Shown piece by piece: positions 1 through 7,253 of a stretch of DNA of 7,253 bases. The notes beneath the pieces are model-generated. The model searched no databases and had not been told where the DNA came from. It was given only the letters and a program-made list of their open reading frames with translations. Origin of the DNA: a virus; IMG/VR virus record IMGVR_UViG_2885989707_000002, positions 1 to 7,253 of that record, one strand, 5' to 3'. Positions within the stretch are counted from its first letter, which is position 1. The number at the start of each line of letters is the position of its first letter. Both the position numbers and the translations under genes were made by a program.

Positions 1-80
1 CGTCCGGAAGATCGCGCCGATCCGGGCGGCATTGATCCATAATCCCCGTTATGCGAACGCCCCTCGACATCCCCACGCAC
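1..80. repeat. Terminal direct repeat, copy 1 (identical to 7174..7253)
   Basis: Base-by-base comparison shows 1-80 equals 7174-7253. This fits a circular-genome overlap or the start of a tandem second copy. Confidence 0.97.
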
Positions 81-281
81 CTGGTTAAAGACGCCACCCT
101 CTACGCGCCTTCCCGCGATCCTCTCGACGCGGTTTGCCACGTTCTGCAGGACTACCCTAGGCTTGTGTCCGAAGTGCGTGAACTGCGCCGCCGCGTGGCC
201 GATATCGACAACGAAAGCGCAGAGCTCGACCAGCTGGTTGCCAAGCTGCAGAATGTCGCTCGGCAGATCCTCGATATCTGA
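51..281 (+). CDS. Hypothetical 76-aa protein with a C-terminal coiled-coil-like helix
   Basis: Open frame with strong G/C third-position bias. The C-terminal half (VSEVRELRRRVADIDNESAELDQLVAKLQNVARQILDI) is heptad-like. There is no obvious Shine-Dalgarno, and the start codon lies inside a dif-like half site. Confidence 0.5.
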   Translation: MRTPLDIPTHLVKDATLYAPSRDPLDAVCHVLQDYPRLVSEVRELRRRVADIDNESAELDQLVAKLQNVARQILDI

Positions 282-299
282 TCTCTTCCAGGAACAACC

Positions 300-425
300 A
301 TGGCCAACCGAACAGTCAGTCGCTTCGTCAATACACCCGGCACGCCTGCGCCTGTTGTCATCGCTCTGAATGTCATTACCGGCCTGGCCATCCTCGGCAT
401 CATCGTCGCCGCCGTCTTCGGATAG
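300..425 (+). CDS. Hypothetical 41-aa single-pass membrane peptide (MANRTVSRFVNTPGTPAPVVIALNVITGLAILGIIVAAVFG)
   Basis: Absent from the ORF track because it is under 60 aa. AGGA at 290-293 lies 6 nt upstream of ATG 300. It has high GC3, one clear hydrophobic helix and a TAG stop at 423-425. Confidence 0.5.
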   Translation: MANRTVSRFVNTPGTPAPVVIALNVITGLAILGIIVAAVFG

Positions 426-497
426 CGCCTGGCCCTCAGCCTGACCACTCCACACTGATCACTCGCTTCTTCTTGAGTTGGCACGCTGTTTCAGGCC

Positions 498-561
498 GCG
501 AGTAGATCCACTCGCACATTTGCGATCGGCCCGAAGGGGCGAGGGGCGAAGCCCTGCTTTT
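498..561 (+). other. Cluster of short GC-rich hairpins; could be a weak + strand terminator, a minus-strand origin or a packaging element
   Basis: GCGAGT-agatcc-ACTCGC at 498-515. GCCC-gaag-GGGC at about 528-539. GGGC-gaa-GCCC at 544-554, followed by TGCTTTT (555-561). Confidence 0.3.
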
Positions 562-772
562 AGTCTGCGGCGGGCGATTCTTTGCAGCTGATTCCTGGCC
601 CCGACCATCCGCCCTGGTGGTTGGGTATCGACGTCTTCGACGCTTCCATTGCAGCCGTCAGCATCAGCTTCCCGGCTTCCAGGCACTGCACCCGCGTTTC
701 GTATTGAGCGACCTCTATCTCTTGTCCTGGGGCCAGGACCGAGGTCATTGCTAGAATCCACATCTTCGGCAT
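560..772 (-). CDS. Hypothetical 70-aa protein (uncertain)
   Basis: Minus-strand ORF downstream of the repressor gene. Third-position GC is high and the sequence is not low-complexity. No convincing SD precedes it, and the region might instead be structured non-coding DNA equivalent to the Ff intergenic region. Confidence 0.3.
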   Translation of the reverse strand: MPKMWILAMTSVLAPGQEIEVAQYETRVQCLEAGKLMLTAAMEASKTSIPNHQGGWSGPGISCKESPAAD

Positions 773-796
773 CCGTGCTGCGGCGGCGGGGAGGGT

Positions 797-845
797 GAGT
801 CCACCTACTCTAATGGTGGACTCTTGTGCAATGACTGCACTTTTG
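797..845 (+). other. Ff-type plus-strand replication origin core: gpII nick-site hairpin plus an adjacent second hairpin
   Basis: GAGTCCAC-ctactctaat-GGTGGACTC (9-bp stem, 797-823) is followed by CTTGT and GTGCA-atgac-TGCAC (826-840), then TTTT. Against the recalled f1 origin (GAGTCCACGTTCTTTAATAGTGGACTCTTGT) I count 27 of 31 identical positions without gaps. The predicted nick lies between T811 and A812. Confidence 0.8.
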
Positions 846-846
846 A

Positions 847-1074
847 CTACTTCTTGACCGCCCTCGGAATCTCTAGTGAGAGCATGCCGTTTTCGCCTAA
901 TTCGACGTAACTGATTGATTCGCTTAACAAAAAATGTGCTAACTCGCTATCCCTGATCGGCTGGCGACCCTGCCTAACAAGCAACTTGTTGATTTCTATA
1001 CATTTTTTGCGCAAAAGCTCTTGCTCGTCATTGGTCAATCGCAGAGTTGCTGGCATCGAGCCACTACCTATCAT
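847..1074 (-). CDS. Small ribbon-helix-helix-like transcriptional regulator (putative phage repressor / immunity protein), 75 aa
   Basis: GGAGG (complement of 1082-1086) lies 7 nt upstream of the ATG at 1074. The N-terminal ATLRLTNDEQELLRKKCIEINKLL fits an RHH beta-strand plus helix pattern. It is transcribed divergently from gII, as repressors are in temperate inoviruses. Local GC is low, about 42%. Confidence 0.65.
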   Translation of the reverse strand: MIGSGSMPATLRLTNDEQELLRKKCIEINKLLVRQGRQPIRDSELAHFLLSESISYVELGENGMLSLEIPRAVKK

Positions 1075-1090
1075 CGGGAAACCTCCAAAA

Positions 1091-1109
1091 GTGTACGTGC
1101 ATGCATGTG
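1091..1109. promoter_or_regulatory. Operator-like tract 1: 19-nt perfect alternating purine-pyrimidine run containing TGCATGCATG (1098-1107)
   Basis: The sequence gtgtacgtgcatgcatgtg lies in the divergent intergenic region between the repressor and gII. It contains overlapping GCATGC/TGCATGCA palindromes. Confidence 0.5.
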
Positions 1110-1116
1110 ACTTGTG

Positions 1117-1144
1117 TTGACGTATGCTTGTTCACGCGTATACA
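1117..1144 (+). promoter_or_regulatory. Candidate sigma70-type promoter for gII (TTGACG, 16 nt, TATACA)
   Basis: The -35-like TTGACG is at 1117-1122 and the -10-like TATACA at 1139-1144, about 55 nt upstream of the gII ATG. Operator-like palindromes lie on both sides. Confidence 0.4.
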
Positions 1145-1162
1145 TTCCGCTCCATTGTGATT

Positions 1163-1178
1163 TGCATGCATGCATGCA
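1163..1178. promoter_or_regulatory. Operator-like tract 2: perfect 16-bp palindrome TGCATGCATGCATGCA, i.e. (TGCA)4
   Basis: Sits between the candidate gII promoter and the gII start. It is bracketed by the 7-bp inverted repeat ATTCCGC (1144-1150) / GCGGAAT (1185-1191). Confidence 0.55.
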
Positions 1179-1197
1179 ACAGAAGCGGAATCTGTGA

Positions 1198-2493
1198 ATG
1201 CTCGACAAAATCCACATGTTCATCCCGTTCAGGGTCGAAGCGATCACCGTCCACGGTGACGACGCAGGGCACCACTCCCTGTCGGTCGATCTCGAAAGCC
1301 TGGGCATTCCGCTTCGCGCTACCAGCGTGCTTGCAGACGGGAAGGGTGGATACATCGTCGAAGACCTTTCTCACGCCTGGGAGTCGCTGCCCACGTCGTT
1401 TACGCCTATGGCGGTCAAGGTGTTTCACCAGTCGCTAGGGAAGCGGATGAATCCCGGCGTTGAGCTGAAAGCCAGCCCGGCGAAGCTGCTCCAGGGGCAC
1501 AACGTGTTCGGCCCGACCTCGATCCGCATGGGCGGCGAGGTGATGCTCAAGTGGCTGGCCGGCTCGTACCCCGAACTGTTCGCTCAACTCGATTGGCAGA
1601 GCGCCCAGGTCTACAACATCGACTGCACTTTCTCGGCCCGCCTGCCTGACGAGCGCACCGCGCTCCAACTGATCCAAGCGCTGCGCGGTGTCAGCAACGG
1701 CCAAACCCGCAACCGTGGCGACGACTACCAAACAACAGCGTATTGGGGCAGCAAGGAAACCCGGCTCCGCAAGCTGAAGGCCTATCTCAAAGGCCCCGAA
1801 TTTCGCGGCGAAATCGACAAGGCCGTCAAGGCGGCGAGGGGAGGCAACCTTTCAGCCCGTCGCACCCTGGCGGTGCTGCAAAACCCCGACTTGCTCGCCT
1901 GGGCGGACAACCTGATCCGCCTCGAAGCGACCGTCATGCACCGCTGGCTAGACCGGCGAAACATCCCCTCCAAGTTGTGGGCGCTCTGCGACTACCAGGA
2001 ACACCTAGCCACCCAGGGAATTTGTTTTATCCAGTGGTGCTGGGAGCAAGTAACGAAAGAACTGTTTGCGGCCTTTGAAGGTATCTCCATGCGAGTAATT
2101 AATGATGAAAAAGTGCTGGCCGCACTTAAAGAGAAGTTCGCCAAGCCCGGTGGCCGGTGGACTAAGGCCAAAACTTGCAAGTCCACTGGTGTGCAAATAC
2201 CGCCCGTATTTGTTGCCGGTCCCGTCAATGAAAGTGTCGCCCTTAACCTGTTTCGTACCTATCGCAGCATCAAGGATTACGGATGGCAGGAAACAATGGA
2301 CTCAATGTCCCGTCGCACTTTCTACGATCACGTAGGCAAGATTTGCGAATGCGGTCTAAGTAAAGCGGCCCTCCAGAAGTTGAAGCAGGACGACCATAAA
2401 AACAACGTGGTGCCTATCCTGCGCTTCCTGCAAGTCGATTTCAGCGCCCAGCGTCCGAGCTGGTACCAAGAACCAAGCGTGGAGGCTGCCTGA
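1198..2493 (+). CDS. gII: Replication initiation protein, Ff gene II family (rolling-circle nickase, Phage_CRI type), 431 aa
   Basis: By eye it aligns end to end with recalled M13/f1 gpII. Matching blocks are HAWESLPTSF / HPFESLPTHY; ELKASPAKLLQGHNVFGP / EIKASPAKVLQGHNVYGT; IDCTFSARLP..GVSNGQTRN / IDATFSARAP..NVSNGQTKS; and NNVVPILRFLQVDFSAQRPSWYQEP / NNVVPLVRFINVDFSSQRPDWYNEP. Confidence 0.93.
   Translation: MLDKIHMFIPFRVEAITVHGDDAGHHSLSVDLESLGIPLRATSVLADGKGGYIVEDLSHAWESLPTSFTPMAVKVFHQSLGKRMNPGVELKASPAKLLQGHNVFGPTSIRMGGEVMLKWLAGSYPELFAQLDWQSAQVYNIDCTFSARLPDERTALQLIQALRGVSNGQTRNRGDDYQTTAYWGSKETRLRKLKAYLKGPEFRGEIDKAVKAARGGNLSARRTLAVLQNPDLLAWADNLIRLEATVMHRWLDRRNIPSKLWALCDYQEHLATQGICFIQWCWEQVTKELFAAFEGISMRVINDEKVLAALKEKFAKPGGRWTKAKTCKSTGVQIPPVFVAGPVNESVALNLFRTYRSIKDYGWQETMDSMSRRTFYDHVGKICECGLSKAALQKLKQDDHKNNVVPILRFLQVDFSAQRPSWYQEPSVEAA
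2089..2493 (+). CDS. gX: gX-like protein from in-frame internal initiation within gII (C-terminal 134 aa)
   Basis: The in-frame ATG at 2089 (..FEGISMRVINDEKVLAAL..) aligns with the gpX start of M13 (..FEGDSMNIYDDSAVLDAI..). GAAGG at 2077-2081 lies 7 nt upstream. Confidence 0.6.
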   Translation: MRVINDEKVLAALKEKFAKPGGRWTKAKTCKSTGVQIPPVFVAGPVNESVALNLFRTYRSIKDYGWQETMDSMSRRTFYDHVGKICECGLSKAALQKLKQDDHKNNVVPILRFLQVDFSAQRPSWYQEPSVEAA

Positions 2494-2738
2494 TGAAAGC
2501 GCCGCTCCGTTTCATGTTCGGTTGGGTGCTCTACGTCGCGCTGTTCGCCATGCTAAACCCGGTCATCAATGCCATTTGGCAGGCCGTGTTGTTCCAAGAC
2601 CCCATCGTCCCGATCGTTACGGCCTTCGTCGGCGTGATGATCCTCATAGCGCTCTATCTGTGGCCTCTGAGCCGCTTTATCAGCTGGTGCGATCAACCCA
2701 GGGCAGCCGCCCCAAATACTCCCCATGAGGTGAAATAA
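2493..2738 (+). CDS. Hypothetical 81-aa inner-membrane protein (two predicted TM helices)
   Basis: ATGA overlap with the gII stop. GGAGG at 2481-2485 lies 7 nt upstream. Hydrophobic segments are FMFGWVLYVALFAMLNPVI and IVPIVTAFVGVMILIALYLWPL. Confidence 0.7.
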   Translation: MKAPLRFMFGWVLYVALFAMLNPVINAIWQAVLFQDPIVPIVTAFVGVMILIALYLWPLSRFISWCDQPRAAAPNTPHEVK

Positions 2739-2739
2739 C

Positions 2740-3078
2740 ATGCTTCTTCTGACCGGTCTCTGCCATGGCTACAAAGTTAACAAGCGCATTGTTGGCCAAA
2801 ACGAGTTCGTCGATCACCTGATTCTGCTGGAAGTCCAGGACCTGAATCAGTACGGCATCGCCGAAACCAAAACCGCAAGTATCAAGCTGGCCAAGGCTGA
2901 TATCGAAAACGGTGTCCAGCATCAATACGACGCTCTGAAAGGCAAGTCTGTAAGTGTGCCCGTCCGCGTCGGCCCCTGGGCATCCAAGGCCGGTAATGCC
3001 GGTTTCGACTACTGGATTTCCGGCGACCGTAAGCCAGTCAACATGCAAATCCGTCAGCAAGTAGCGGCGGCTAGCTAA
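2740..3078 (+). CDS. Putative ssDNA-binding protein (gene V positional analogue), 112 aa
   Basis: GAGGTGA at 2727-2733 precedes ATG 2740. It lies downstream of the replication gene and upstream of the coat genes, and is soluble and beta-rich-looking. The call rests on synteny only; I see no recognisable similarity to Ff gpV. Confidence 0.5.
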   Translation: MLLLTGLCHGYKVNKRIVGQNEFVDHLILLEVQDLNQYGIAETKTASIKLAKADIENGVQHQYDALKGKSVSVPVRVGPWASKAGNAGFDYWISGDRKPVNMQIRQQVAAAS

Positions 3079-3080
3079 CC

Positions 3081-3200
3081 ATGTCCTCCGTCGAGTGCGA
3101 GGAATGCGGCGAAGTTATCGACCGTGAAGACGACGAATACGAGTTGTTTGATCATGACCTCGGACTTTGCGCGTTCTGCAACTCCGAGGCGGAGGATTAA
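3081..3200 (+). CDS. 39-aa highly acidic zinc-ribbon-like mini-protein (MSSVECEECGEVIDREDDEYELFDHDLGLCAFCNSEAED)
   Basis: Not in the ORF track. The ATG lies 2 nt after the upstream TAA, which suggests translational coupling. It has CxxC-x20-CxxC spacing, 16 of 39 residues are D/E, and GC3 is high. Confidence 0.5.
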   Translation: MSSVECEECGEVIDREDDEYELFDHDLGLCAFCNSEAED

Positions 3201-3203
3201 CAA

Positions 3204-3338
3204 ATGCCCGAATCATTAATGGTCGTGACTCTTGGCGAATTAGTCAAAGTTGGGACTTCTGGTTTTCTGTGCACCCTCGTAGCTTGGTTCGCAGGAATTA
3301 AACTGTCGATTGCTCTTTCGGCAATTCGGCGTTTCTAG
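3204..3338 (+). CDS. 44-aa small hydrophobic protein, candidate minor coat protein (gVII/gIX-like)
   Basis: GGAGG at 3191-3195 lies 8 nt upstream of ATG 3204. The product is MPESLMVVTLGELVKVGTSGFLCTLVAWFAGIKLSIALSAIRRF, with one TM helix and a basic C-terminus. It sits immediately upstream of the major coat gene. Confidence 0.55.
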   Translation: MPESLMVVTLGELVKVGTSGFLCTLVAWFAGIKLSIALSAIRRF

Positions 3339-3374
3339 CTGCATAAGCAGCAAACAACTGTAGGAGTTACAAAG

Positions 3375-3509
3375 ATGGAAGAAGTTCTCGCCTCGATCAC
3401 TGGCGGTCAAATCGCTGCTGCTGTAACCGCGCTGATGATCGTTGTTGTCGGTATCGCCATGGCCTTCCAGGGTGGCACCGTCGGCAAGCGCGTCGTCAAG
3501 AAGATCTAA
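3375..3509 (+). CDS. gVIII: Major coat protein, 44 aa, no signal peptide (Pf3-like class)
   Basis: AGGAG at 3362-3366 lies 8 nt upstream of the ATG. The product is MEEVLASITGGQIAAAVTALMIVVVGIAMAFQGGTVGKRVVKKI. It has an acidic N-terminus, a hydrophobic core and a C-terminus with four basic residues. A strong terminator follows, as with Ff gVIII. Confidence 0.8.
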   Translation: MEEVLASITGGQIAAAVTALMIVVVGIAMAFQGGTVGKRVVKKI

Positions 3510-3532
3510 CGCCACTTGTGGCCAAGTAAGGG

Positions 3533-3562
3533 TAGGGGTCAGAAATGGCCCCTAAACTTTTT
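3533..3562 (+). terminator. Rho-independent terminator/attenuator after the major coat gene
   Basis: TAGGGGTCA-gaaa-TGGCCCCTA forms a 9-bp stem with one G-U pair and a GAAA tetraloop. It is followed by AAC and TTTTT (3558-3562). Confidence 0.75.
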
Positions 3563-3682
3563 ATGGAAACGTCAATTGCAATAACATCCTCCGATATCGC
3601 CTTCTTCGTATATTCGGTGGTGTTTCTCGCCGGAGTAATAATCGGATGGGCATTCGTAATCGGTACACAACAGCGGTTCTAA
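3563..3682 (+). CDS. 39-aa hydrophobic peptide, possible minor coat protein (METSIAITSSDIAFFVYSVVFLAGVIIGWAFVIGTQQRF)
   Basis: Not in the ORF track. It has a single TM helix and lies between gVIII and gIII, where some inoviruses carry a tiny ORF. It has no SD, starts at the edge of the terminator T-run and overlaps the gIII start by 37 nt in another frame. Confidence 0.35.
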   Translation: METSIAITSSDIAFFVYSVVFLAGVIIGWAFVIGTQQRF

Positions 3683-5076
3683 TCGCCTGCCTCTTTAGCG
3701 CCTCATTCGCAGGCGCTGCCACCCGCAAAAACGTAGATAATATGCCTCGCCGATCCGATGTCATTAATGGCGGCGGTTCCGGCTTCCAGACGCCAAATGG
3801 CGAGCATGCTTTTTACGGTCGCGACCACGTTGATACGCACACTGCGGGCAATAGATTCAATGCTGGTGACAATCCCGGCGGCTCTGATCGCCGTCAAAAG
3901 ATAACTGTTAAGCCCAGGGTTAACTTGAATCCAAAGACTGTTGCCGGTGCTGCTGGCAACTTCTTTAAGAGCTTGCCTAAAGGCGGTGCTGCCGGTCTTG
4001 CTGCTGGTGGTGCAATGCAGGCAATGCTAGACGCCATTGATGCCGTTATGGACCCTGCTAACAATACAATTCAGGTTCCATCTTTTTCAGAACCGTCCAC
4101 AAAGCCAGGCGATTATTACTGGCATGTCGATAACTTCCAATCTCCAAGCCCTAAGAAGGCTTGCGAGAATTACTATGCAGACAAGTCATCTACCTGGACT
4201 TATCCGATTCACTCTGTCGAGGTGGTGTTTGCCAGTGAGTCACAGGGATTCTGTCAGGGTATTTCCTACGGAACCCAGTACTCTGACGCTGTTTGGCGTC
4301 AAGGTACTGGCTGTTCCGGGACATATAACTCTTCCACTGGTGAATGCCTTGTTTCCTCCGGTTATCGTGATGTAACCCAGTCTGATTTCGATTCTATGGA
4401 AAAATGGGCTGCTGATCAGAATTCAGATTTCATACGCGACCTTTTGAAAGAGAACTGCGCAGGCTCTCCAAGCCCTTTGGCATGTATCGACGAACTTAGC
4501 GAGTGGGGCGACATGCTCGGCCCATCTTCTGCTGTTGGGCCTAAGGAAACTACTACGACCACTACAAAGAACCCTGACGGCACTGTCTCCACCACGTCAA
4601 CCAGCACGCAGAACACATATAACTACAGCTTCGGGCCGACCTATTACAATTACAGCACGACCACCAAAAAGACAGTAACCAACGCTGATGGCAGTGTTTC
4701 AGAGTCTGAGGCCAGTGACGGTGGTCTATCTCCAGGCAATGAAAAGCCAGAGAATGAAGAGCCGAGTTATTCGTTCGAGGATTCGGAGTTCCCTAAGGTC
4801 GATCCGTTCTATGAGCAGAAATACCCAGATGGCTTAGAAGGCGTTTGGAACGACATAAAGGCAAAGATTGACAGCTCTGCATTCATTCAGTTTCTTCAAG
4901 GGTTCATTCCAAACTTCTCTGGAAGTTGCCCTAGCTTCAGCCTCAACCTGAATATTGGGCCGTTTGATCTCGGCGTTCAGAATCTTCCTAGTGTGTGTTA
5001 TGCCTTGGACTTCGTTAAGGTCATCTTGCTATTCACCGCCGTTATGACATTCCGCGCACTGGTATTCGGGGGTTAA
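3646..5076 (+). CDS. gIII: Minor coat / host adsorption protein (gIII-like), 476 aa
   Basis: GGAG at 3632-3635. The signal peptide MGIRNRYTTAVLIACLFSASFAGA has a likely cleavage site after AGA. Cys-containing N-terminal domains are followed by an Ala/Gly-rich stretch and a Thr/Ser-rich linker (ETTTTTTKNPDGTVSTTSTST..), then a C-terminal hydrophobic anchor (FVKVILLFTAVMTFRALVFGG). It is the largest structural ORF and precedes gVI/gI. Confidence 0.8.
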   Translation: MGIRNRYTTAVLIACLFSASFAGAATRKNVDNMPRRSDVINGGGSGFQTPNGEHAFYGRDHVDTHTAGNRFNAGDNPGGSDRRQKITVKPRVNLNPKTVAGAAGNFFKSLPKGGAAGLAAGGAMQAMLDAIDAVMDPANNTIQVPSFSEPSTKPGDYYWHVDNFQSPSPKKACENYYADKSSTWTYPIHSVEVVFASESQGFCQGISYGTQYSDAVWRQGTGCSGTYNSSTGECLVSSGYRDVTQSDFDSMEKWAADQNSDFIRDLLKENCAGSPSPLACIDELSEWGDMLGPSSAVGPKETTTTTTKNPDGTVSTTSTSTQNTYNYSFGPTYYNYSTTTKKTVTNADGSVSESEASDGGLSPGNEKPENEEPSYSFEDSEFPKVDPFYEQKYPDGLEGVWNDIKAKIDSSAFIQFLQGFIPNFSGSCPSFSLNLNIGPFDLGVQNLPSVCYALDFVKVILLFTAVMTFRALVFGG

Positions 5077-5077
5077 C

Positions 5078-5416
5078 ATGGCCGGCATATTCCAGTTCTT
5101 CACCACCATACTTGCCAAGATCGTCAACTTCGCCAAGTGGCTTCTCGCTGTATTCAAGCAAGTCTTTGTTGATTGCTGGAATATATTTACCGACTTGTTT
5201 TGCTGGGGATTTGAATCCGTTCTTGGCATTGCGGTCGGCGCTCTAAACATGATTGCCATCCCATTCAACCCGCAAACCTACTTTGCACTGATACCGCCAG
5301 ATGTAGCGAACGTTATGGGCTACATTGGTGTTCCCCAGGGCGCTGCGATAGTTGTTTCGGGCTTAATTATCCGCTTCACGCTTCAAACCATTCCGTTCGT
5401 TCGCTGGGGTTCCTGA
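5078..5416 (+). CDS. gVI: Minor coat protein gVI-like (DUF2523-like membrane protein), 112 aa
   Basis: Starts 1 nt after the gIII stop. It is a multi-TM hydrophobic protein the same length as Ff gpVI, and sits immediately upstream of, and overlapping (ATGA), the Zot-like gene. Confidence 0.7.
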   Translation: MAGIFQFFTTILAKIVNFAKWLLAVFKQVFVDCWNIFTDLFCWGFESVLGIAVGALNMIAIPFNPQTYFALIPPDVANVMGYIGVPQGAAIVVSGLIIRFTLQTIPFVRWGS

Positions 5417-6570
5417 TGATTAACTTGATGCTGGGCGCCCCTGGTGGCGGTAAGTCGTATGAGTCTGTTGTTTATCATGTGCTGCCAGCGCTCAATCGCG
5501 GGCGCAAGATTATTACCAACTTGCCCCTCAATCTCGATGCCCTGGAAGCGTTCTGCCCTGGCACACGCCACTTGGTTGAGATCAGAACCGAGAAGTTCGA
5601 CGGCGGGCTTATTCGCCCCTTTTCGCGTGTCGAGCACTTCGGCGACGACTGGCGGCATGAGACTGAGGGCAATGTTGGCCCTCTCTATCTGATCGACGAA
5701 TGTCATTTGGCATTGCCACTTCGCGGAACTGATATAGCCATTGAAGAATGGTTTTCCCTTCACCGGCACGAAGGGGCCGATGTTCTGTTGATCACGCAAA
5801 GTTACGGCAAAATCAATAAGGCCATCCGCGACCTGGTGCAGATGGTTTACCTCTGCCGCAAAGCAACCATGCTCGGCTCGAACAGTCACTACATTCGCAA
5901 GGTTAAAGATGGTTTGCGTGGTGCTGAGGTCAACTCGGCTATTCGCAAGTACGAGAAGCGCTATTTTCCGTTGTATCGGAGCCACACGAAGTCCAGCTCG
6001 GCAGTTGAGGAATTCGAGGCTAGTGACGTGCGTTCCATCTGGTCAGGCTGGCACTTTCGTGGTGCCGTCCTTTGCCTTCTCGTTGGCCCGCTTTGGCTGT
6101 TCTGGCTCTATTCCGGCGACAGCGAAGCCAAGGTCGCAAAGCAGCCTGAGAACGTCAGCACAACGGTCACCGTCGAGCACGTTGACGGCACGGTCGAGAC
6201 GACCACTACGGGGCCAGATCTGCACGCTGATGTTCCGGCAGAGGAATCCCATGAGCAAGGGCAGGGGAGTGAGCCCCCGCCGCCCCCAAGCCATCCATTC
6301 TCTGGCTATACGTTCTTCCTGAGCGCCCAGATGTACACCAAGCGAGAATCTGGCGAGTATCACAAGGGTTACGTCGCTCTCGCGCAAAACGGCGTTGTAG
6401 TCCGTCAGATCCCTTTCGACGACTTGCGAGAAGCCGGCTACGTGATCACCTATCGGTCGCCGTCCGTTATCAGCGTGACATTCGACGGCAAAGACCTGGG
6501 CTATGTCGTATCCGCGCTACCTCAGATCTCGATGACGCCAGCCAACCAGATAGGGAAAACCGGCGGTTAA
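5416..6570 (+). CDS. gI: Assembly ATPase gI / zonula occludens toxin (Zot) family protein, 384 aa
   Basis: N-terminal Walker A GAPGGGKS (residues 7-14) and Walker B-like PLYLIDECH (89-97). A single TM helix AVLCLLVGPLWLFWLY spans about residues 217-232. The C-terminal periplasmic domain has a PPPPP tract. Its position after gVI is canonical. Confidence 0.92.
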   Translation: MINLMLGAPGGGKSYESVVYHVLPALNRGRKIITNLPLNLDALEAFCPGTRHLVEIRTEKFDGGLIRPFSRVEHFGDDWRHETEGNVGPLYLIDECHLALPLRGTDIAIEEWFSLHRHEGADVLLITQSYGKINKAIRDLVQMVYLCRKATMLGSNSHYIRKVKDGLRGAEVNSAIRKYEKRYFPLYRSHTKSSSAVEEFEASDVRSIWSGWHFRGAVLCLLVGPLWLFWLYSGDSEAKVAKQPENVSTTVTVEHVDGTVETTTTGPDLHADVPAEESHEQGQGSEPPPPPSHPFSGYTFFLSAQMYTKRESGEYHKGYVALAQNGVVVRQIPFDDLREAGYVITYRSPSVISVTFDGKDLGYVVSALPQISMTPANQIGKTGG

Positions 6571-6607
6571 ACGGGAGGGCTCCCGCTTGCGGGAGGGACC
6601 CGTTTAA
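6567..6607 (+). other. Strong compound hairpin at the gI stop codon; candidate terminator, packaging signal or minus-strand origin element
   Basis: The outer stem TTAAACGGG / CCCGTTTAA is 9 bp. It encloses the inner stem CTCCCG-cttg-CGGGAG (6 bp). GGGAGGG occurs on both flanks. No T-run follows. Confidence 0.5.
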
Positions 6608-6739
6608 ACGTCCGCGTTTGACCCGCTCGGCAGTGTCTGTCACCTCCGGGCTCCACAGTGCACGCAACCACGACACCACGGCTCTAGGCCCCGCGTATCA
6701 AGCACCCTGATAACATCGCCGAAACGATAAGGGGGCTTA

Positions 6740-6753
6740 TGCATGGGCATGCA
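6740..6753. promoter_or_regulatory. Operator-like inverted repeat TGCATG-gg-CATGCA overlapping the start codon of the 62-aa ORF
   Basis: It has the same TGCATG/CATGCA half-sites as the tracts at 1098-1107 and 1163-1178, and lies at the head of the accessory cassette. Confidence 0.4.
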
Positions 6754-6931
6754 AGATAGGGATTGGTATCGGAACGAACGGCGTAAGCAACGACAGCAAC
6801 ACCAGGCTACTCAACATCAACCCGAACCCTCGACTTCATCAGCAAGCCCGCCAGGATTCACCAGCGCAGCAGCTATAGGCTCGCTACTCGCCGCGCTTAT
6901 CGTCGTCCTGATCGGCTTTGCATTCATCTGA
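6743..6931 (+). CDS. Hypothetical 62-aa C-tail-anchored membrane protein
   Basis: AGGGGG at 6729-6734 lies 8 nt upstream of the ATG. The N-terminus is basic and Gln-rich (MGMQDRDWYRNERRKQRQQHQ). A Pro/Ser linker leads to a C-terminal TM helix (AAIGSLLAALIVVLIGFAFI). Confidence 0.5.
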   Translation: MGMQDRDWYRNERRKQRQQHQATQHQPEPSTSSASPPGFTSAAAIGSLLAALIVVLIGFAFI

Positions 6932-6940
6932 GAACTGACC

Positions 6941-7138
6941 ATGCCTGACTTCATCAAGCTGACAGCGCCTGACGGCGTCGTGATCGAAGCGCCGGTCGAT
7001 GGTTGGCGTACCTGCGACTGCGGTGTGCTGGGCTTGGCTGACGGCTCGAACTGGTGCGATGACTGCAAGGAACGCTTTGAGCGCTCATGGGATGAATGCT
7101 TTGATTCTGCGGGTCGTCCGCCTCAGGCTGATTCCTAG
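6941..7138 (+). CDS. Hypothetical 65-aa Cys-rich (CxC..CxxC..C) acidic protein
   Basis: Open frame with moderately high GC3. Five Cys residues sit in TCDCGVLGLADGSNWCDDCKERFERSWDEC. The SD is weak, and the stop codon abuts the dif-like site. Confidence 0.45.
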   Translation: MPDFIKLTAPDGVVIEAPVDGWRTCDCGVLGLADGSNWCDDCKERFERSWDECFDSAGRPPQADS

Positions 7139-7232
7139 GCTTCGCATAATGAACAGGGATTCATGGTTAATGCCGTCCGGAAGATCGCGCCGATCCGGGC
7201 GGCATTGATCCATAATCCCCGTTATGCGAACG
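7139..7232 (+). other. Candidate XerC/XerD-dependent attP: two inverted dif-like sites able to fold into an imperfect hairpin of about 90 nt
   Basis: Site 1 (+, 7139-7171) reads GCTTCGCATAA-tgaacagggat-TCATGGTTAAT. Site 2 (read on the minus strand of 7205-7232, equal to 32-59) reads CGTTCGCATAA-cgggga-TTATGGATCAA. Compare E. coli dif GGTGCGCATAA-TGTATA-TTATGTTAAAT. The XerC-type arm TTCGCATAA is exact in both copies. Confidence 0.55.
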
Positions 7233-7253
7233 CCCCTCGACATCCCCACGCAC
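7174..7253. repeat. Terminal direct repeat, copy 2 (identical to 1..80)
   Basis: Same 80 nt as the window start. It includes the first 30 nt of the ORF that starts at 51. Confidence 0.97.

Follow-up and report, generated by a model that had tools for sequence, protein, structure and literature searches.

The plus-strand origin of the Ff phages (f1/M13/fd) lies upstream of gII on the + strand, and the 239 nt that separate the two are free of genes and hold an AT-rich enhancer, domain B. A 40-nt f1 site (GTTCTTTAATAGTGGACTCTTGTTCCAAACTGGAACAACA), which begins shortly 5′ of the nick and extends across the dyad, suffices for nicking by gpII in a heterologous system (bioRxiv 10.1101/2023.12.22.573028).

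In CTXphi, the corresponding region has the order Ig-1, rstR, ig-2 and rstA: RstA nicks Ig-1 beside rstR, RstR acts on the rstA promoter in ig-2 as a repressor, and the specificity of immunity is set by divergent rstR alleles (PMC8265649; PMC11509585). The CTXphi ori(+) comprises 167 bp with several hairpins, depends on HU and is nicked between a G and a T in the loop of the second hairpin (PMC4439123). Excision of CTXphi has been modelled as a product of replication, a model that requires tandem arrays with one origin per unit (PMC8265649).

For the inoviruses of Pseudomonas, we found no description of such an origin in the searchable literature, which omits most subscription journals. Literature searches with the origin sequence strings led to vector or primer papers only, and those by accession to the blackswan metagenome paper only. 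As far as the searchable literature shows, the origin has not been explicitly described before for this Pseudomonas clade.

Here we analysed a stretch of viral DNA of 7,253 nt (IMG/VR record IMGVR_UViG_2885989707_000002, positions 1 to 7,253), hereafter the window. We found that bases 797 to about 852 very probably form the core of a plus-strand origin and are homologous to Ff domain A, a reading that rests on sequence homology, synteny, covariation and the homology of the initiator.

Gene content and host

The first 80 nt of the window are identical to the last 80 nt, so that the window represents a circular genome, complete at 7,173 nt, very probably that of a temperate filamentous phage of Pseudomonas. 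Pfam and PHROG searches recovered a gene set typical of inoviruses across the window. It includes gII (1198-2493, + strand), encoding a rolling-circle initiator of the II/X family, which is followed by genes for a G5P-like ssDNA-binding protein (2740-3078; PF17426, Putative_G5P) and a major coat protein of 44 aa (3375-3509; PHROG coat families). Downstream lie a large ORF without family match (3646-5076), to which a g3-like role may be assigned by position only, a gene for a DUF2523 protein (5078-5416; Pfam) and Zot/gI (5416-6570; Pfam).

The nearest relatives of the window's gpII are encoded by prophages of Pseudomonas mangiferae DMKU BBB3-04 (94% identity) and Pseudomonas sp. LRF_L74 (92%), and all source-named homologues of the 75-aa protein encoded between the origin and gII come from Pseudomonas as well; the host genus is thus very probably Pseudomonas. 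A megablast search of the whole window against GenBank phages returned no close sequenced relative in that collection, the sole match being a partial one to blackswan219-1 (gII, 1199-2131, 77.5%).

The base composition is uneven. GC content is 46% over about 800-1200 versus about 61% in both flanks. A preliminary description of the window had put the GC content of the rep gene at about 65%, which is correct for the stretch from about 1200 to 2000 only (60-65%); the last 500 nt or so of gII, like the rest of the genome, have about 50%.

A predicted Ff-like nick hairpin upstream of gII

The sequence at 797-827 (GAGTCCACCTACTCTAATGGTGGACTCTTGT) is aligned by blastn without gaps to f1/M13 5766-5796 and fd 5767-5797, with 27 of 31 positions identical (87.1%). 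No other site in the window matches as well and no second Ff-like site occurs; 300 first-order Markov shuffles reached at most 21 of the 31 positions.

Within this match, the f1 alignment and the predicted fold delimit a first hairpin, the nick hairpin of the ori(+), at 797-823 on the + strand, with its stem at 797-805/815-823 and its loop at 806-814 (TACTCTAAT). The two arms are complementary at 9/9 positions. Furthermore, the ssDNA fold of 790-850 consists of exactly two hairpins, the nick hairpin and the second hairpin described below (dG -13.6 kcal/mol, z -5.7). The locus thus has a homologue of the f1 5766-5796 inverted repeat, and its loop contains the predicted cleavage site T^AAT. In the fd record J02451, the 'origin of viral strand synthesis' (rep_origin) is placed at base 5782, which aligns with A812 of the window; by this homology, gpII is predicted to cleave between T811 and A812, in the loop.

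The 40-nt f1 nicking site corresponds to 805-844 of the window. We draw the core origin, the counterpart of f1 domain A, at 797-852 on the + strand, with a putative 3′ limit taken from f1 (+29 to +40 from the nick); so drawn, the core touches the stop codon (847-849) of the minus-strand gene that lies between the origin and gII.

The product of the ORF at 1198-2493 (431 aa) matches PF05144 (2.2e-48) and PF05155 (1.5e-13) in Pfam and TIGR01629, 'replication protein, II/X family', in NCBIfam (7.2e-83). Its alignment with fd gpII is colinear over the full length of both proteins, with 36% identity (E 1e-81). Tyr196 aligns with Tyr197 of fd gpII and is invariant in 8 gpII sequences with 34-65% identity. 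The fd residue is reportedly the one that links gpII to DNA (Asano et al., 1999, cited in bioRxiv 10.1101/2023.12.22.573028), and Tyr196 probably attaches the window's gpII to the 5′ end in the same manner.

A second hairpin with compensatory changes

The second hairpin, a dyad with the sequence GTGCA-ATGAC-TGCAC (826-840, + strand), is in register with the gpII-binding repeat of f1, GTTCCA-AAC-TGGAAC. It lies at the same distance from the nick hairpin as in the Ff phages, and the spacer between the two, TCTTGT, is identical; the arms differ, being GTGCA/TGCAC in the window and GTTCCA/TGGAAC in Ff.

To follow this dyad across relatives, we used an alignment of 38 distinct origin cores (alignment A3), taken from loci collected with a search pattern entirely outside of which the second hairpin lies. 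Four of its six pairs show compensatory changes, with 93% of the cells paired, and the arms occur as GTGCA/TGCAC, GTCTCA/TGAGAC, GTCTAA/TTAGAC, GTGCGA/TCGCAC and GTTCCA/TGGAAC. The covariation score was 0.304, compared to 0.147 for shuffles and at most 0.079 for slid partners. For the nick hairpin, six stem pairs and the loop bases CT.TAAT were fixed by the pattern, and its invariance in the same alignment is uninformative. The covariation of the dyad is equally compatible with an extruded hairpin and with a symmetric duplex site that binds two initiator molecules.

The prophage with the 94%-identical gpII carries another dyad, GTCTCA/TGAGAC, and since the dyads differ despite such similar initiators, the central bases are perhaps not read by gpII. 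That these bases vary by compensatory substitution even at this level of gpII identity hints that the initiators of this phage group may respond to dyad shape or symmetry instead of base sequence, a reading that we rate as unlikely.

The preliminary description had anticipated much of this by comparison with the f1 origin sequence. The f1 sequence given there proved right, and its ungapped match of 27/31 was reproduced by blastn against f1, M13 and fd. The claim that the match covers the whole stem agrees with our coordinates, and the nick that had been predicted at T811/A812 coincides with the one suggested by the fd rep_origin base. Likewise, the second hairpin was correctly placed at the position of the Ff gpII-binding hairpin, and the 431-aa ORF had been recognised as a gpII homologue, as the full-length alignment to fd and the TIGR01629 match now confirm.

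Distribution of the probable origin among relatives

We scanned IMG/VR with a degenerate pattern of the nick hairpin, and found it in at least 119 contigs. Among the matches listed, 108 loci have a complete gII downstream, and in all of them the hairpin lies upstream of this gene and on its strand. A second sample, which avoids the circularity of such a search, was anchored on gpII instead; it consists of the best 80 relatives, all at least 59% identical, so that distant gpII clades fall outside of it. In this sample, the hairpin was found 369-750 nt upstream of gII in 68 of the 70 loci for which at least 800 nt of upstream sequence are available. The distance in the window is 400 nt.

Conservation of the nick site had been described as striking for this particular genome. 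It is not, since the hairpin persists where gpII has only 32-38% identity to that of the window, in the pattern-anchored set, which is biased toward motif-bearing sequences.

Three inoviruses of P. aeruginosa outside the Pf group, 97-1 (OR621023), 42-1 (OR621020) and 5a-DAzarov (PQ758391), match the window better than f1 does. They carry the same pair of hairpins (87-97% over 29-45 nt), and when they are aligned with fd, both hairpins and the intervening spacer T(C/T)TTGT are in register. Their gpII is 60-61% identical to that of the window, and together with the IMG/VR relatives they share the layout of hairpin, minus-strand gene and gII. They differ from the window in having little nucleotide similarity over the remaining genome, and their GenBank records contain no annotated origin; 97-1 and 42-1 moreover carry other families of protein in the place of the window's minus-strand gene, annotated in GenBank as 'repressor'.

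In the P. mangiferae and LRF_L74 prophages, the hairpin lies about 370-400 nt upstream of gII. The LRF_L74 prophage also shares the candidate repressor of the window (93%; P0001). These prophages differ from the window in their dyad, GTCTCA/TGAGAC, and in their structural modules, which are unrelated at the nucleotide level. Both prophages are integrated tandem arrays in which each unit has one hairpin.

Given that f1 origins are common in vectors and that a match of 31 nt is short, the resemblance to f1 might be due to chance or to contamination of the assembly with a cloning vector. The shuffles fall short of the real match, the flanks are unrelated to f1, the four differences from f1 form a variant that is shared with Pseudomonas phages, and the distance to the cognate gII is typical of the clade in more than 100 loci. 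We consider the probability of this explanation to be close to negligible; the shuffles, the shared variant and the conserved gII distance effectively refute it. Very unlikely in our view, too, is that the two hairpins act mainly as a + strand terminator or insulator that shields the regulator gene from read-through, with the working origin located elsewhere. The second hairpin followed by a T-run (TTTT) does score as an intrinsic terminator on the + strand, and in the IKe record both stem-loops of the origin are also marked 'pot. transcription termination'. However, a terminator would have no reason to preserve CTNTAAT in the loop and TCTTGT in the spacer, both of which are shared with f1 at a gpII identity of only 36%, and no other site in the window resembles the Ff origin. 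Both roles could coexist, and termination would then at most be a function added to that of the origin.

The interval between the origin and gII

The interval between the origin core and gII holds a gene on the minus strand (847-1074), encoding a conserved protein of 75 aa that we consider a candidate immunity repressor (phrog_5642, 8.6e-24). We found 43 homologues with 16 invariant positions, all of them annotated as 'hypothetical'. Among the matches listed, 32 IMG/VR loci have a member of this family in the corresponding place. The gene as such, postulated in the preliminary description, is thus real and conserved.

A minus-strand ORF between the hairpin and gII is found in 103 of 108 IMG/VR loci, among the matches listed. 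The five others are two Ff-type genomes, with an interval of 239 nt, and three contigs with a gap of 49 nt. The interval ORFs encode 59-169 aa, with 312 aa in one outlier locus, and fall into at least three unrelated families, three of which are large (32, 26 and 25 loci), plus minor ones. The first of the large families is that of the window's 75-aa protein, the second is another family of small proteins that includes the 'repressor' of phage 97-1, and the third is made up of XRE-type HTH proteins about 120 aa long, to which the 'repressor' of phage 42-1 belongs. The separation of the origin from gII by a regulator gene had been viewed as a peculiarity of this genome. With the same layout in 103/108 loci, in phages 97-1 and 42-1 and in CTXphi, it is instead the standard layout in this phage group.

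Between the start of the minus-strand gene and gII lies a divergent control region of 123 nt (1075-1197), which we characterised by a promoter scan and a repeat search. It contains a sigma-70-like promoter for gII, with TTGACG at 1117-1122, a spacer of 18 nt and TACATT at 1141-1146, and TGCATGCA-type palindromes lie on either side of this promoter (1095-1108 and 1162-1179). Across the loci that carry the window's repressor family, the order is kept: an alternating purine-pyrimidine palindrome (ACGTGCATGCATGT), TTGACG, the 18-nt spacer, TACATT and the palindrome TTGCATGCATGCATGCAA. In these same loci, the palindromes drift with the divergence of the repressor. The palindromes are candidate operators flanking PgII, and the repressor role of the 75-aa protein is suggested by its position and by these conserved operator-like sequences. 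We propose that the 75-aa regulator gene (847-1074) and the control region (1075-1197) together constitute an exchangeable immunity cassette.

The order of elements is that of CTXphi: a nick site (797-852), an inverted candidate repressor gene (847-1074, minus strand), a putative operator/promoter region (1075-1197) and a Phage_CRI-type initiator gene (1198-2493), an order also seen in the 103 loci mentioned above. Other points in common with CTXphi are the exchangeable repressors, the presence of relatives in tandem prophage arrays and two inverted dif-like sites. The window differs from CTXphi in that its core is Ff-like in sequence, and its candidate repressor has no relation to the XRE-type proteins found in this slot at some loci. 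Compared to the Ff phages, to which it is homologous in its nick hairpin and, over the full length, in its initiator, with the origin likewise upstream of gII on the + strand, the window has a 400-nt interval with a minus-strand gene and a divergent promoter region instead of the gene-free 239 nt, and its phage is temperate, with dif-like sites and prophage relatives.

The minus-strand gene had further been said to encode a ribbon-helix-helix (RHH) repressor. The 75-aa protein has no Pfam or NCBIfam match and no recognisable DNA-binding domain. In a profile search against the PDB, it matched only the RHH protein NikA, over residues 3-25 and with a weak E value of 0.62. The AF2 model has a pLDDT of 58, with helices at 15-34 and 42-52, a disordered N-terminus and an extra C-terminal beta-hairpin; a Foldseek search with this low-confidence model returned nothing at E <= 0.001, the best weak matches being winged-helix domains. 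The RHH fold is accordingly unproven, being neither confirmed nor excluded.

These results leave some room for the view that the 75-aa protein is no immunity repressor, and instead a modulator of replication or excision or an antitoxin-like protein, in which case the origin stands and the immunity reading falls. The protein lacks a match to a DNA-binding family, its structure model is of low confidence and its homologues are all 'hypothetical', which would fit such a role. At other loci, however, the same slot is occupied by XRE-type HTH proteins, the gene in this slot carries the GenBank label 'repressor', and the window's gene adjoins a conserved promoter whose palindromes drift alongside the protein. 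The precedent of rstR in CTXphi (PMC11509585) and the weak likeness of the N-terminus to the strand and helix of the NikA RHH domain point in the same direction, and we judge a role other than repression to be unlikely. A further proposal, which appears quite improbable to us, is that the regulator gene doubles as a replication enhancer, with embedded IHF sites in replacement of Ff domain B. The window has only two exact matches to the IHF consensus, 908-920 and 982-994, both inside the 847-1074 gene (0.23 expected), and the interval from the origin to gII is AT-rich relative to its flanks. Over 91 unique intervals, 40 IHF-consensus sites were observed versus 1.3 expected, about 30-fold over shuffles. 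This excess is, however, essentially confined to the window's protein family, with single matches in a few other cassettes, and the sites overlap the codons of the conserved peptides EINKL and SISY, of which EINKL never varies among the family members. No such site occurs in the second small-protein family and at most one in the XRE cassettes, yet all share the same origin. As a general feature, then, the IHF enrichment collapsed to one protein family and its conserved codons. Were the embedded enhancer true, cassette swaps would alter replication efficiency besides immunity. The preliminary description had placed the gene where domain B would be: this holds for the position and for the AT-rich interval, whereas the IHF sites track conserved codons and are largely absent from other cassette families.

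Proposed mechanism and significance

We consider it highly likely that this phage initiates Ff-type rolling-circle replication through gpII at T811/A812, with gII under the control of a divergent regulator in the manner of a CTX-style temperate phage. In the mechanism that we propose, gpII (1198-2493) would bind duplex DNA around the dyad (826-840), flanks included, open the adjoining inverted repeat (797-823) and cleave the + strand between T811 and A812 of the loop, probably remaining joined to the 5′ end via Tyr196. The 3′-OH would then be extended around the circle by the host polymerase and helicase and, at the regenerated origin, gpII would cut again, reseal the ends and free a single-stranded circle. 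Following the logic of CTXphi, the 75-aa regulator would silence gII via the palindromes at PgII and thereby stop replication. The nick position, the binding of the dyad, the repression and the identity of the operators are what we infer in this scheme.

Each element has a precedent, namely the Ff core origin, the II/X initiator, the inverted repressor cassette and the XerCD attP. Current models are not overturned; rather, the Ff and CTXphi paradigms are extended to another host genus. The core origin of the Ff phages is kept at the sequence level far beyond the enterobacteria, with an immunity cassette routinely located between the core and gII. The locus provides a testable origin and nick site for a large and barely described group of temperate Pseudomonas inoviruses, which may be of use for the annotation of prophages, the design of Pseudomonas phagemids and the understanding of replicative excision of tandem prophages.

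Prophage relatives and dif-like sites

The temperate lifestyle is supported by the relatives found as tandem prophages with one origin per unit, by two inverted dif-like sites in the window, at 7141 (+) and 7230 (-), and by the presence in two related loci, several kb beyond the gII gene on its downstream side, of a canonical dif site (TTCGCATAATGTATATTATGTTAAAT), which we take as flanking a prophage. The paired inverted dif-like sites are a putative attP(+) and suggest that integration may proceed via XerCD. The region that holds this pair, 7138-7234, folds as a long forked hairpin (dG -32.9 kcal/mol, z -5.4).

Genome ends and dif-like sites

The two termini of the window carry an exact 80-nt direct repeat (1-80 is identical to 7174-7253), and the contig represents a 7,173-nt circular genome. 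Within 7138-7234, the 3′ portion of which is also present at 1-61, we found two dif-like sites, one on the plus strand at 7141 (beginning TTCGCATAATG) and the other on the minus strand at 7230 (beginning TTCGCATAACG), that is, inverted relative to the first. Folded as ssDNA, this pair forms a hairpin that is long and imperfectly paired (dG -32.9 kcal/mol, z -5.4). The region resembles an attP(+) of the CTXphi type for XerCD. Two related loci have a canonical dif site several kb 3′ of gII, at 15381 in L130 and at 13244 in L132, and this site is possibly located at the prophage edge.

The nearest prophage relatives, found in P. mangiferae (L127) and Pseudomonas sp. LRF_L74 (L128), are arranged as head-to-tail tandem copies with a period of 6,933 and 7,592 nt, respectively. 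Each copy contains its own nick hairpin (7634 and 14567 in L127; 7602 and 15194 in L128), as the CTXphi model requires for replication from the integrated state.

Mosaic composition

Three GC classes make the genome a mosaic, with 61% in 1-800, 46% in 800-1200 and about 50% in the structural genes. Inside gII, the gene of the rolling-circle initiator gpII, GC falls from about 62% to about 50% at approximately 2000-2130, and the nucleotide similarity to phage blackswan219-1 and many IMG/VR relatives stops at 2131, often restarting near 2223. Taken together, the GC drop and the similarity break suggest that recombination joined the N-terminal nuclease part to the C-terminal (gpX-like) part here.

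Two small Cys-rich ORFs, of 39 aa (3081-3200, CxxC...CxxC) and 65 aa (6941-7138, CxC...CxxC), have no family matches; both look like zinc-ribbon mini-proteins.

Origin and flanking regions

The sequence of the dyad 3′ of the nick hairpin (826-840 in the window), compared with L127, L001 and L002, tracks neither the cassette family nor gpII identity. The gpII of L127 is 94% identical to that of the window, yet its dyad is GTCTCA/TGAGAC, and L001 and L002 have a single dyad in common but different repressor families. For two IMG/VR loci of the gpII-anchored set (L205 and L209, gpII about 60% identical to the window's), no recognisable nick hairpin was found within 1 kb upstream of gII, allowing up to 5 mismatches.

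The stretch 5′ of the origin (430-796) is GC-rich and non-coding, and lacks nucleotide similarity to relatives except for short patches at 476-572. ssDNA structure is above chance over 430-860 (z -3.1), with hairpins at 498-515, 543-555 and 563-575, and 430-796 may act as a minus-strand origin or as a packaging signal.

The only two exact matches to the IHF consensus (WATCAANNNNTTR) in the whole window, at 908-920 and 982-994 (minus strand), are 74 nt apart and both lie within the regulator gene. Their position is kept in part of the regulator's protein family, where they overlap conserved codons, and they are absent from the other cassette families. Further downstream, alternating purine-pyrimidine palindromes of the TGCATGCA type (1095-1108 and 1162-1179), which are candidate operators, flank the gII promoter. 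The second palindrome is enclosed by an 8-bp inverted repeat, ATTCCGCT/AGCGGAAT (1144-1151/1184-1191), just 5′ of the gII start codon.
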